Assembly (NCBI GenBank): GCA_951406725.2
Contig: OX597814.1
Coordinates: 224,130,001-224,194,000, forward strand
Reading direction: 5' to 3'
Origin: Octopus vulgaris
Taxonomy: Eukaryota
Length of the DNA: 64,000 nucleotides
The translations under genes and the position numbers were made by a program. The first letter of the stretch is position 1. Each line of letters starts with the position of its first letter. The notes below the pieces were generated by a model. It was not told the DNA's origin and searched no databases. It was given only the letters and a program-made list of their open reading frames with translations. Positions 8,363-45,812 of the stretch are shown in pieces.

Positions 8363-8631
8363 GTAGGTCCCGGGTTGATTCGGGGTTAACCACAGTAAAT
8401 AAGGTACTCAATACATAGCAGAGTAAAATTAATTTATTATATAGAAGGAGCTTCTACAGGACTAGAACTGTTTCATTCAAGAGAAATCTTCAGGAGCTTC
8501 CTGAAGATTTCTCTTGAATGAAACAGTTCTAGTCCTGTAGAAGCTCCTTCTATATAATAAATTAATTTTACTCTGCTATGTATTGAGTACCTTATTTACT
8601 GCGGTTAACCCCGAATCAACCCGGGACCTAC
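8363..8631. mobile_element. Palindromic element A1 (133-bp arms, 3-nt loop) in (TA)n
   Basis: GTAGGTCCCGGG...CCCGGGACCTAC. Arms 8363-8495 and 8499-8631 differ by one mismatch that I could see. Confidence 0.9.
8492..8548 (+). ncRNA. Type I hammerhead ribozyme motif (family A)
   Basis: Stem I AGGAGCTTC/GAAGCTCCT; core CTGAAGA 8501-8507; stem II tTTC-tctt-GAAt; GAA; stem III ACAG/CTGT. Predicted cleavage after GUA at 8539. Confidence 0.8.
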
Positions 8632-9089
8632 ATATATATATATATATATATATATATATATATATATATATATATATATATATGTGTGTGTGTGTGTGTG
8701 TTTCTGTGTCTGTGTTTGTCCCCCTAGCATTGCTTGGCAACCGATGCTGGTGTGTTTACGTCCCCGTAACTTAGCGGTTCGGCAAAAGAGACCGATAGAA
8801 TAAGTACCTGGCTTACAAAGAATAAGTCCCGGGGTCGATTTGCTCGACTAAAGGCGGTGCTCCAGCATGGCCGCAGTCAAATGACTGAAACAAGTAAAAG
8901 AGTAAAGAGTAAAGTGTATGCATGCACACACACACACACACACACACACACAAACACACACACACACGCACACACACACGCACCCGCGCGCACATACTCG
9001 CGCGAGCATATATATATTTACCCACCCACAAACATCAGACGTATATTTATGTATGGAAGCGCTCTTGTGCGCGCGCGCGTTGTATGTAT

Positions 9090-9643
9090 ACTCTTTTACT
9101 TGTTTCAGTCGTATGACTGTGGCCATGCAGGAGCACCACCTTTAGTCGAGCAACAAATCGACCCCAGGACTTATTCTTTGTAAGCCTAGTTCTTATTCTA
9201 TCGGTCTCTTTAACCGAACCGCAAAGTTACGGGACATAAACACACTAGCATCGGTTGTCAAGCGATGTTGGGTCGGGGAGAAACACAGACACACAAGCAT
9301 ATACACATACATACATACATACATACATACATATATATATACACACACACACACACACACACATATATATATATATATGTATATATATGTATGTATGTAC
9401 ATATATATATATGTATGTATGTATATATATGTATATATATATATATATGTATATATATATATATGTATATATATATATACGACGGGCTTCTTTCAGTTTC
9501 TGTCTACCAAATCCACTCACAAGGCTTTGGTCGGCCCGAACCTATTGTAGAAGACATTTGCCCAAGGCGCCACGCAGAGGGACTGAACCCAGAACTATGT
9601 GGTTCGTAATCAAGCTACTTACTACACAGCCACTCCTACGCCT
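9090..9643 (-). mobile_element. SINE family 1 copy
   Basis: Reverse complement of 2672-3087 with an expanded internal microsatellite. Confidence 0.85.
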
Positions 9644-9750
9644 ATGTATGTATGCATGTATGTATGTATGTATATATATAATGTATATATATATACATCT
9701 GTTATATGTGAGGTCATAGGAAACCCAATGCTAGCTTTAAGTTGCAAGCC

Positions 9751-10307
9751 TAATAATAATAATAATAATAATAATAATAATAATAATAATAATAATAATA
9801 ATAATAATAATAATAATAATAATAATGATAATAATAATATTAATAATGATAATAATAATAATGGTAATAGTGATGGTGTTGATGATGATGATGATGATAT
9901 AAAAACAAAAGTAAAAAATAAATCAAAACCAGTCAGAAAATTAATACTTTCACTTAGGAAGTAGAAAACAGAATATTAAATAGAAATGGTTTTTATTTGT
10001 CATCGGCTATCATCGTCATAATCGCTGCCGTCTTCGTCATCATTATCCTCATCCTAGTCGTCCGTTATCGTCGTCGTCGTTGTAATTAGCTGCCACCACT
10101 CTCCTTGTCCTCATCGTTGTCATCATCAGGGTCACTGTTATCGTTATTGCCATCATCGTCGCTATCACTATGATCATCACGACCATCATCATGGTCATCA
10201 TCATCATCATCATCATCACCATCATCATCATCATCCCACGGTTTATTATTATTATTATTATTATTATTATTATTACTATTATTATTATTATTATTATTAT
10301 CATTATT
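9751..10307. repeat. (AAT)n/(GAT)n/(ATC)n/(ATT)n trinucleotide arrays
   Basis: Direct reading. Confidence 0.9.
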
Positions 10308-10863
10308 GAGTGAGAGAGCAGAGCATGCCATCAAAGTGGCACTGGGGTAGAATATACGAAGCCCAGTATACCCATCATGACTACCCGTATGATAAGGGTA
10401 CACCAGGCACATGCATCACAACCATCACATGCGCGATTTGGTGATCTCATATCAAGATAAACAGCACATGACCTTGCAGGTGGGGCCCAGTTAGAATTTT
10501 CTTCAGGTTGAGTAGCCCATCCCGCTCAAAAGGTCCCTGAATAAGGGTTATTTAAGGATGTTGAAAGAACCACCCATGTTTCCAGAGGTGAATTATTCAA
10601 ACCCCAAAGCATCCCTCTCAACACATGGCTATGATTGCTCCCCCACTACTTCTGCTCATGATCAGAGATGCACGTATCGTCAGCCACTAAGGGACATGCT
10701 CAACTGGCTATGGTCAAACAACTGACAAACAAATCTGTGGTATTGAGCAGAATATTTGCTGTAGCCCATCTTTTATACCAAGACAAAACCATGTACATGA
10801 TAACACTTCCAATCAGTTAAGATCAGAGGCCACGAGAGCCACTGCCTGGTACTGCATCAGGGC
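10308..10863 (-). mobile_element. Non-coding retroelement 'X', full-length copy
   Basis: Reverse complement of 5142-5695. The 3' end abuts (AAT)n on its own strand and the 5' end abuts (GAT)n. Confidence 0.9.
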
Positions 10864-43935: not shown

Positions 43936-44088
43936 GATTACGGCTGTTTCGCAACCTTCTTCATGAAGTATTAATTTCAGTGTAAGAGAAATGTTTTCAC
44001 GTTTGCAGTAATATGTAGGCTAGACATTATACAATACAATAGTATATTTACAAATCAATGAAAATAAAGAAAGCTGGCTTATCAGATC
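43936..44088 (-). ncRNA. Degenerate hammerhead-like motif with very long stem II insertion (family H)
   Basis: Minus strand GAT-CTGATAA-GCcAGCTTTCTT...(~105 nt)...AAGAAGGTTGC-GAA-AC agcc GT-A-ATC. Confidence 0.45.
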
Positions 44089-45528
44089 ACCAGAACGTCA
44101 AGGTTACACCAACGGTTCAACTCTAAATATACATACAAAATATTCTCTTTACAAATACAATGTATAGGAGGTCGAACCTGGACATAGCTTGATTTGGTCA
44201 ATAAAATTAAAGATTTGTTGATTCATATCCATTAAAGCACTAGGTGCAAATTCGAAGTATTGACTATTCTGAATGTAAACTAAAACGAGGAAATGAGAAG
44301 TGAAAGTAAAAGTAGATAAAGTAAATATATAAAATAAAATAAAATAGCTTAAAGCTTGTAAAAATATATAAATGAATTTTTAGCCGAAGTAATCATGTGG
44401 ATGGATAAATGGGGAACAGACAGACAAAGATATAATATTAAACCAAAATATAATATTGAACAACAGTGAAACTCAAAATAGAGTTAAATTGTCGCATGGC
44501 TTCTCACAAAAGAATTTGAACTTCTAAGAATTTTAATCACACTTTCCAATCACATCGCAAAATACTTTCCAGTTCAATGATCTGGATTAACACAAAAACA
44601 TACACACACTCACAGATAAAAAGAGGAGGTTTCTGTGAGACACACGAGTGTCCGAATCCACATCTTATAATACACACACACACACACACACACACACATA
44701 TATATATGTATACACACATATATGTATTTATATATATATATATATATATATATATATATATTTATCTGCTTTCTCAATATTTTTAGTATTTTAAAGTATT
44801 TTATAAATTTTTAGTCGTTTTTTGATGGGATGTTACTATACGTATTTTTTTTCCGCATATATGCATATTTTTACCTTGCTGGTTTTCTGTATTTGTATGT
44901 CTTATATATTTTATATTTTGATTTATATATTATGAAAGCCATGGTAATGTTTATTTATATATGATGTATCTTGGAGGTTTGATACCGTATATAAAGTTGT
45001 TAACTCATTTTAATGTTTGTTCGATGACCTATATTTAATTATCCTTGCCTCATTTATTCGAGGACTTCTTTTTTGCAGTCTTATATGCTGTTTGTCTCTT
45101 TTGAAAGAAACAATAGTTATTCTTGATGTATATATATATATATATATATATATATATATATATATATATATATATATATATATATATATATATATATATA
45201 TATATATATATATATATATATATATATATATATATATATATATATATATATATATATATATTTGAATAAATTTAACAATTAAGGATAACTTCTTAATAAC
45301 GAATCTTAACAAGAAATTATCAGGTAGTTAGCGTGAAAAACCTCATAAAAGAAAAGAATTCGAAAATAATTTTTTTCTTTTGAACAAATTAATTATATCT
45401 ATATTGTGTAGAGGGCATTATTACACATAAATGCCTCACACTAAGAGGGACAAAGTCATTACTACCAAAATTACACCAATCATACCTAAATGCAGTTCTT
45501 CAAAGCAAGACATTTAAAAAATGAATTT

Positions 45529-45585
45529 AGTTCTGTATCACAATGATTTCACATTTAACTTACGTCTATGATCATCAGCAGAACT
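45529..45585 (-). ncRNA. Type I hammerhead (family E), antisense copy
   Basis: Mirror of 45597-45653 with one stem III change (ATCAT-t-GTGAT, pairing retained as U-G). Confidence 0.8.
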
Positions 45586-45596
45586 GATTCAGAATC

Positions 45597-45653
45597 AGTT
45601 CTGCTGATGATCATAGACGTAAGTTAAATGTGAAATCACTGTGATACAGAACT
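45597..45653 (+). ncRNA. Type I hammerhead (family E)
   Basis: Stem I AGTTCTG/CAGAACT; CTGATGA 45604-45610; stem II tCATaGAC-gtaa-GTTaaATGt; GAA; stem III ATCAC-t-GTGAT; AUA at 45646. Confidence 0.8.
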
Positions 45654-45812
45654 AAATTCATTTTTTAAATGTCTTGCTTTGAAGAACTGCATTTAGGTAT
45701 GATTGGTGTAATTTTGGTAGTAATGACTTTGTCCCTCTTAGTGTGAGGCATTTATGTGTAATAATGCCCTCTATACAATATAGATATATATATATATTTG
45801 TGTATATATATA

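Follow-up and report, generated by a model that had tools for sequence, protein, structure and literature searches.

Insertions of Penelope-like elements (PLEs) in which the pLTRs stand head to head in inverted orientation, with a tail on one side only, have been described (PMC8557442, legend of Fig. 2; PMC3846280; PMC4209133), and the origin of the inverted ends has been called open (PMC8557442). A PLE protein has been found in vitro to cut and extend both strands, with RT initiating internally, at two positions that delimit the tail (PMC11167929). The promoter of Drosophila Penelope is internal and TATA-less (PMC2377424). A U3-A8 variant of the hammerhead is known, as are dual hammerheads in Schistosoma that lie ~100-700 bp apart on opposite strands (both PMC4209133), and a PLE origin of retrozymes has been argued (bioRxiv 10.64898/2026.07.22.740005).

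Here, we analyse a stretch of 64 kb from Octopus vulgaris (the window) in which six palindromes had been interpreted as a system of ORF-less fold-back elements with hammerhead ribozymes. We conclude that the palindromes are very probably PLE-derived pairs of inverted pLTRs, the shortest form of ordinary EN+ Penelope-like element insertions. A literature search returned no description of these octopus families or of two-end priming for PLEs; supplements and Repbase/Dfam may hold them.

Results

All six long inverted repeats are present in the 64-kb window where they had been predicted, with arms 95-100% alike and loops of 0-20 nt. They represent five families (A/D, B, C, E and F), A and D being one family, and the proposed lack of similarity between families was confirmed, no cross-family match being better than E=0.1. 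Each palindrome lies in (TA)n. The prediction that (TA)n bounds them directly is true of one side only in B, C, E and F, where the element extends past the palindrome and a tail intervenes between one arm and (TA)n (B, 20544-20599; C, 32977-33014; E, 38056-38202; F, 45261-45393). The features are as follows.

8363..8631, no strand assigned: element A, head-to-head pair of pLTR plus tail from a Hydra-like PLE family, with (TA)18 on the left and (TA)25 on the right
8492..8548, plus strand: hammerhead of A, with a 9-bp helix I, a 4-bp helix III and a predicted cut after 8539
20094..20599, no strand assigned: element B, end of a coding PLE, with tail-less inverted pLTR (20094-20317), sense pLTR (20320-20543) and tail (20544-20599); (TA)35 on the left and (TA)23 on the right
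20379..20424, plus strand: degenerate hammerhead-like motif of B, with C at position 9 and a weak helix III; its mirror image on the minus strand begins at 20258
32641..33014, no strand assigned: element C, Neptune-like coding PLE end, with tail-less inverted pLTR, sense pLTR (32809-32979) and tail to 33014
32764..32852, both strands: two U3-A8 minimal hammerheads of C (32813-32852, plus; 32764-32803, minus) with palindromic helix III
33092..33283, no strand assigned: element D, short tail-less arm (33092-33149) and tailed arm (33150-33283)
33148-33198, plus strand: hammerhead of D, a descriptor match
37626..38202, no strand assigned: element E, Hydra-like coding PLE end, with tail-less inverted pLTR, sense pLTR from 37851 and tail to 38202
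37913-37997, plus strand, and 37684-37768, minus strand: hammerheads of E, descriptor matches
45261..45788, no strand assigned: element F, with its tailed arm (45261-45590) on the minus strand and a tail-less arm at 45592-45788; (TA)66 on the left and (TA)6 on the right
45597-45653, plus strand, and 45529-45585, minus strand: hammerheads of F, descriptor matches

Element D is the commonest form of family A, and element A is atypical in having a tail on both arms, a state found in 1 of 45 junction-selected A loci. The window is denser than the genome, with 6 hairpins per 64 kb vs 11, of which 5 are PLE-type, across 60 stretches of 10 kb at even spacing. The genome holds roughly 20,000 such hairpins, in keeping with the large population that had been anticipated.

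Genome searches tie four of the five families (A/D, B, C and E) to long copies with frames for a Penelope-type RT and, at the C terminus, a GIY-YIG domain, the longer copies that the original prediction had proposed to look for. Such frames lie upstream of C copies, whose relatives carry PF00078 and PF01541, and upstream of B copies, where matches to Pfam RVT_1 and GIY-YIG are weak; Pfam scores for these frames are under the curated cut-offs, and the motifs were aligned. The A and E frames gave no relevant Pfam match. Body-linked copies were found at three loci for A (L327, L328, L335) and at two for E (L159, L161), and the idea that A is non-coding was rejected on finding RT/EN frames in longer A loci. 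The A endonuclease has a CxCx5C linker, with CxxC and CxH around a conserved E and N and no CCHH. In E, DKT, RW, CxxC and CxH are present, and an Asn-rich stretch takes the place of the linker. A homolog search with E returned two uncharacterised proteins of Octopus sinensis; none was returned when the A endonuclease was searched against longer proteins. By motif, A and E are Hydra-like and C is Neptune-like. Family A has a microsatellite-rich 3´ UTR of ~2-3 kb.

Family F differs in source. No ORF was found in 30 loci with 1.5-kb flanks, and same-strand hammerheads 460 and 476 nt apart (L121/L124 and L146) reveal direct tandem units, so that the source of element F is a tandem non-coding unit of ~460-480 nt. 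Non-coding tandem units that each carry a type I hammerhead are a feature of retrozymes, and by its sequence F is retrozyme-like.

Head-to-head insertions form a continuum, with bodies of up to several kb, and the hairpins lie at its short end. Short hairpins make up 16 of the 22 A loci that were sampled by position. Variable 5´ truncation with an inverted 5´ copy, a feature of EN+ PLEs, is seen here. The prediction of PLE derivatives reduced to an inverted pLTR pair in (TA)n thus proved right as to origin and layout; what has to be dropped is a separate, ORF-less fold-back system, four of the families being the ends of coding PLEs. A further proposal, that the inverted arm of long copies ends at the pLTR start, was rejected: the inverted arm includes variable body.

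A type I descriptor for a CUGANGA/GAAA/UH core with three helices identified 8 hammerhead motifs in the 64 kb, all inside the palindromes, vs a mean of 0.1 and a maximum of 1 in dinucleotide shuffles (n=40). All 8 point outward from the hairpin centre, as foreseen. The pLTRs of A, C, E and F pass the descriptor; in the strict sense, only C, E and F bear hammerheads on both strands, as had been claimed. In A, loss of one base at the junction breaks helix I of the minus-strand copy; in D that copy carries a one-base deletion at the cleavage site. B fails on both strands owing to a non-palindromic helix III and to the C at position 9 that had already been pointed out as a deviation, and position 17 of its motif is U or C across copies. 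Common variants of the A hammerhead affect N7, loop II and loop III, and F copies include one compensatory change in helix I. No Rfam hammerhead family was among the best 150 of 380 matches for the whole window, or in any match for single arms of C, F and B. The top Rfam rows are microRNA models that match any hairpin. From their helix III of 4-5 bp, the A and F hammerheads could fold as monomers, and those of C and E are predicted to need a same-sense partner for helix III, which the hairpin does not offer.

The 3´ ends fall at two discrete positions in each family: 66 and 135 in A, 226 and 281 in B, 171 and 206 in C, 198 and 350 in E, and 197 and 325 in F. Head-to-head pairs have exactly one tail at 43/45 A junction loci, and the same applies at loci with an inversion in B (15/15), C (10/10) and E (15/16). 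Among solo copies of A, C and E, too, the tail-less end serves as a normal 3´ end, which makes it a priming site. Because the tail is one-sided, the two strands give different RNAs, and the proposal of the same RNA from either side fails.

The 5´ ends of the arms pile up at the hairpin centre in E (10/29, P~1e-6), C (6/29, P~0.008) and A (13/17 positional pairs, in which the arms are equal); in B the pile-up is not significant (3/30, P~0.11). Of the 15 distinct A variants with a linked body, 13 have TATAAA at -31, and a TATA-like box is found at -31 in B and at -28 in E; C and F have no TATA at -30. Arm ends that gather ~30 nt behind such a box in A, B and E make the centre the likely start of the RNA. 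In family G, 0/30 loci are body-linked, leaving no copy for an out-of-sample check of the TATA box. A pile-up of 5´ ends at the predicted cleavage site, the start point for 3/25 matches in a further match set, was rejected as absent from the positional samples. The E end also occurs in three runs that are only guessed to be RNA, which provides no evidence on expression or cleavage.

Discussion

The hairpins were likely formed anew with every insertion, both ends of the target serving as primers, and not spread as hairpins, because their junctions vary, subfamily changes are mirrored, and either arm may reach further 5´. Junctions have overlaps of 1-7 nt and in B, C and E differ from locus to locus. 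In A, a subfamily change is discordant between arms in 3 of 150 listed junctions and otherwise mirrored, and ~20 variants, 3 of them in the window, are confined to both arms of one insertion.

In this model, an element protein would cut both strands of a (TA)n site and copy the same RNA from both DNA ends; of the two RT start sites, one end would prime at the tail-proximal and the other at the tail-distal one. With priming in the 5´ pLTR, both cDNAs would run off the 5´ end of the RNA, the predicted hairpin centre, and would then be joined head to head at short palindromes. The hammerhead would be pLTR cargo, predicted to work in the source element's sense mRNA and to fall silent in a read-through hairpin. 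Lacking the TATA box, the hairpins would likely be dead ends yielding dsRNA; since the Drosophila Penelope promoter is internal and TATA-less, they might still be transcribed. In its widest form, which we put forward tentatively and at somewhat less than an even chance, the model makes the hairpins a genome-wide footprint of PLE integration: a dimeric RT-endonuclease would prime both cut ends on one RNA at the two sites bounding the tail, and run-off at the TATA-defined start would turn A and G into hairpin factories, leaving ~20,000 promoter-less templates for perfect dsRNA. The two tails of element A speak against the model, as does the foreign filler mirrored in both arms of L181, which fold-back copying would give.

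The strongest alternative retains the PLE origin and lets the inversion arise by self-priming: the cDNA or an antisense template would fold back at a small palindrome and copy itself, and endonuclease trimming or later deletion would set the tail-less end. This was proposed from palindromes at inverted junctions (PMC3846280), and would account for A arms that usually end at one point, on a 4-nt palindrome (673 loci), as well as for the mirrored private variants and the L181 filler. It does not readily explain why, among B, C, E and F samples that are best-scoring matches biased to full arms, 15 of the 34 unequal pairs have a tail-less arm that extends beyond the tailed one on the 5´ side, by as much as ~570 nt; the tail-less arm is therefore not simply a copy of the tailed one. 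In L183 and L184, moreover, the arms barely overlap, the tailed arm ending where the other begins, and the tail-less end is a priming site in solo copies. Unequal arms could also arise by post-insertion deletions at hairpin centres. We regard self-priming as the unlikelier account, and as to how the arms are joined we lean mildly to two-end priming.

Much less probable are the self-propagating mini-elements of the original prediction, whose rod-like RNA would cleave itself and be copied as a unit, as in retrozymes or viroid-like RNAs. Short hairpins do prevail among A loci, two A junction types recur (673 and 317 loci), the compound junctions at L259, L286, L290 and L310 could be second-generation copies, and family G behaves alike. 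Against this, every subfamily shows the A junction with its diagnostic changes mirrored, and the asymmetric form of the junction is found in both orientations (17:11). In read-through RNA, each ribozyme would be paired to its own antisense, so that the ribozyme is predicted to be unable to fold (modelled penalty 62-125 kcal/mol; helix I pairing probability <1e-40 in full hairpins), which argues against a viroid-like RNA, as does the missing helix III partner of C and E. Some fold-backs (L383/384, L386/387) are without any hammerhead, and no arm begins at the predicted cleavage site in 22 positionally sampled A loci or 30 F arms. A single inherited A junction, suggested by 25 of 26 look-alike matches, was rejected as query bias, positional samples showing both orientations.

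Perfect palindromes are a known long-read artefact, and the E junction of this locus is bridged by none of the contig pieces listed from four DNA-type runs, yet fold-back artefacts, like MITEs of a cut-and-paste transposase, are highly improbable given arms that differ by up to 5% and end at family-specific positions, flanks that differ on the two sides, copies of the same layout with kb-long spacers, unequal ends in place of equal TIRs, and linked frames for RT/GIY-YIG and no transposase. A TSD is unreadable inside (TA)n. Contigs of the same four runs cover family E with other arm-to-arm joints, with sides of <30 nt.

As a class, the hairpins are ordinary, being PLE stubs which repeat pipelines would wrongly call MITEs. 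Their value is mechanistic, as thousands of young copies give countable constraints on how PLE inverted ends form, namely that a pair has one tail, that either arm may be the longer, that one template gives both arms, and that the 5´ ends lie at the predicted start site. These constraints make the two-end priming model directly testable in the existing in vitro PLE system. The many perfect hairpins in introns would be a large putative source of dsRNA for editing or silencing.

In LINE-1 twin priming, the other end of the target primes at an internal point of the RNA, and the resulting 5´ inversion is joined with microhomology. The octopus elements would share these features; the inverted LINE-1 piece does not duplicate the 3´ piece, whereas both octopus arms are copies of the same pLTR, begun at two start sites next to each other. 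Non-LTR retrozymes (PMC7229834; bioRxiv 10.64898/2026.07.22.740005) resemble F in its non-coding hammerhead unit of ~460-480 nt in direct tandems, but are head-to-tail arrays giving circular RNA, whereas F in the window is a head-to-head stub known from DNA sequence. With minimal PLE hammerheads (Cervera and De la Pena 2014, PMC4209133) the octopus motifs have in common the type I core, the palindromic helix III and, in C, U3-A8; the helix III of 4-5 bp in A and F and the C at position 9 in B set them apart. Hydra-clade PLEs (PMC8557442, section 11) share the linker and CxxC/CxH without CCHH with A, RW, DKT, CxxC and CxH with E, and (TA)n with both, but E has an Asn-rich stretch for the linker, and A exceeds the <3 kb stated for elements of the Hydra clade. 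Unlike Drosophila Penelope with its internal, TATA-less promoter, A, B and E have an upstream TATA-like box. Compared with EN+ PLE insertions (PMC8557442; PMC3846280; PMC2377424), octopus bodies are often of zero length, tails reach 56-150 nt vs 30-40, and A has its long microsatellite-rich 3´ UTR; shared are the inverted head-to-head pLTRs, the optional tail at one end, 5´ truncation, a palindrome or microhomology at the junction, (TA)n targets, and an RT with C-terminal GIY-YIG.

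Results

A hairpin finder recovered exactly six inverted repeats in the window, which lies close to one end of the largest contig in this 2.8-Gb genome; their positions are those of the original prediction. The elements, all head-to-head, span:

8363-8631, element A
20094-20599, element B
32641-33014, element C
33092-33283, element D (family A)
37626-38202, element E
45261-45788, element F

With a type I descriptor (C3-G8 or U3-A8 core, A9, helices I-III), eight hammerhead motifs were found in the 64 kb, every one within the repeats; 40 dinucleotide shuffles of the window averaged 0.1 motifs and never had more than 1. 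The expected hammerheads on both strands are present in C, E and F; A and D match on the plus strand, their minus-strand copies having each lost one base, from helix I (A) or from the cleavage site (D). B has no descriptor match, and the sole hint of constraint there is that its copies vary between U and C at position 17. No Rfam hammerhead appeared among the best 150 of 380 whole-window matches, nor on single arms of C, F and B. The description of the palindromes as bounded by (TA)n needs amendment for B, C, E and F, where a one-sided tail intervenes. Copies of one abundant SINE-like repeat, at 8290-8361 and 32560-32638, adjoin A and C, and both elements lie in its (TA)n tail, so that the microsatellite tail of a different element has been targeted in a nested fashion. 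The window also contains:

14034-15488 (-), open frame of 484 aa, with what we take to be non-LTR-type reverse transcriptase motifs
4268-4651, 47091-47456, 48668-49144, 50118-50582 (+), presumably C-terminal zinc-knuckle/restriction-like endonuclease fragments of non-LTR retrotransposons
57640-58949 (-), broken frames, presumably a DNA-transposon transposase remnant

Two 3' ends occur per family (A 66/135, B 226/281, C 171/206, E 198/350, F 197/325) and represent the tail of Penelope-like elements (PLEs), which PMC11167929 maps to two internal reverse transcriptase (RT) start sites. Exactly one tail per head-to-head pair was seen at 43/45 A loci and, at loci with inversion, in 15/15 B, 10/10 C and 15/16 E.

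Single-arm genome searches with B, C, E and F gave 667-1975 first-look candidates; for each family 40 candidates were scored and 30 retrieved. In these sets coding sequence lies upstream in the majority of C and B copies and in many of those of E, and longer fetches revealed RT frames followed by GIY-YIG endonuclease. Longer copies joined to such frames, which the original prediction proposed to look for, exist for C, B and E and, at 3 of 11 longer loci, for A, a family whose shorter copies look non-coding. The A frames are 2-3 kb upstream, beyond a microsatellite-rich UTR; in a full-length C copy (L150) the tail directly precedes the start codon. Relatives of C carry PF00078 and PF01541, direct Pfam scores of the frames were below threshold, and the named protein relatives are from Octopus. 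One A insertion holds a nested 899-codon open frame with a PLE-like endonuclease C-terminus (L332:4452-7148, minus strand). At two loci (L153, L331) a long A copy and a B copy lie side by side, similarly arranged, which may reflect segmental duplication or co-mobilisation.

Short hairpins made up 3/30 B, 4/29 C and 9/29 E loci in the best-scoring sets, the remainder being longer or solo, and 16/22 A loci in a positional sample. An A 23-mer has 7247 exact matches. Sixty 10-kb stretches contained 11 hairpins, 5 of PLE type, which extrapolates to ~23,000 PLE-type hairpins per genome (95% range 7,600-54,000). The large population proposed from six in 64 kb is borne out; the window is several-fold denser than the genome sample.

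F, in which 30 loci with 1.5-kb flanks showed no ORF, is a retrozyme-like unit whose hammerheads recur on the same strand at a spacing of 460-476 nt (retrozymes are covered in PMC7229834 and bioRxiv 10.64898/2026.07.22.740005). Several F arms (L380, L383/384, L386/387, L388, L392) start 7-12 nt past the predicted cleavage position, right after helix I, as if RT had stalled at the folded helix. An array of ~355-360-nt units (L222:2200-4560) with seven canonical hammerheads, divided five to two between the strands, reads from its sequence as a non-LTR retrozyme, part of which is inverted. A sixth family, G (L229, L232, L249, L396-L425), consists of short elements that carry a hammerhead and nearly always take the form of a hairpin. 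Their 5' boundary is sharp, U4-to-C is a frequent variant of the core, and 30 loci revealed no coding partner.

Discussion

The hairpin centre is the predicted RNA start. Arm 5' ends pile up there in E (10/29, P~1e-6), C (6/29, P~0.008) and A (13/17 pairs), 30/30 fetched G copies end near this point, and the B pile-up (3/30) is not significant. TATAAA stands at -31 in 13/15 distinct body-linked A variants though the spacer diverges; TATA-like boxes occur at -31 in B and -28 in E, and none at a matching upstream position in C and F. Priming inside the 5' terminal repeat (pLTR) would yield two cDNAs, both running off at the start of the RNA, which would account for the shortness of the hairpins. 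The promoter of Drosophila Penelope, described as internal (PMC2377424), counts against such run-off.

Two A junctions recur, at 673 and 317 loci, both in both subfamilies. A diagnostic subfamily change is discordant between arms at only 3/150 listed A loci, and the asymmetric junction occurs in both orientations (17:11). In all five families the arms within one insertion are closer to each other than to unrelated copies, and ~20 variants are confined to both arms of a single insertion (a few of the pairs counted are mis-pairs of tandem or overlapping copies). B, C and E junctions vary from locus to locus, with overlaps mostly of 1-5 nt. The mirrored subfamily changes, insertion-private variants and locus-specific junctions argue that both arms derive from one template at the time of insertion. 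Priming at two ends is modestly favoured over the fold-back self-priming proposed in PMC3846280, which is the reading suggested by foreign filler mirrored in the arms of one locus (L181); the tail-less arm extends further 5' than the tailed arm in 15/34 unequal pairs, which simple copying of a tailed cDNA cannot explain; later deletions at the hairpin centre may be the cause. Two-end priming also has a counterpart in the PLE protein of PMC11167929, which cuts and extends both target strands.

The self-cleaving, rod-like read-through RNA of the original prediction is not borne out by folding. In such an RNA every motif lies opposite its complete antisense copy; to impose the hammerhead fold costs 62-125 kcal/mol, and the probability of helix I is <1e-40 (computed for A, C, D, E and F); the minimal A, D and F motifs alone form helix I well (0.95-0.97). 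Helix III is palindromic in C and E, a form read as dimer-type in PMC4209133. The hammerheads point outward because the 3' ends are joined head-to-head. Some fold-backs hold no hammerhead, and insertion in vitro did not need cleavage in PMC11167929.

On a motif reading, A and E are candidate members of the Hydra clade: the A endonuclease has the CxCx5C, CxxC and CxH motifs described for it, and E has DKT, CxxC and CxH; the C linker looks Neptune-like. In E an Asn-rich insert between RT thumb and endonuclease (L159:3429-4508) takes the place of the linker and recalls similar N-rich stretches in Adineta Penelope (PMC3846280). The families may already be catalogued in paper supplements or repeat databases. 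The hairpins are real, abundant and young, and their interest lies in countable constraints on how PLEs form inverted ends. Their class is already known: PMC4209133 describes hammerhead pairs on opposite strands, 100-700 bp apart, as well as the U3-A8 core, and PMC8557442 draws an inverted 5'-truncated copy plus tail as typical of PLEs, calling its origin undefined.
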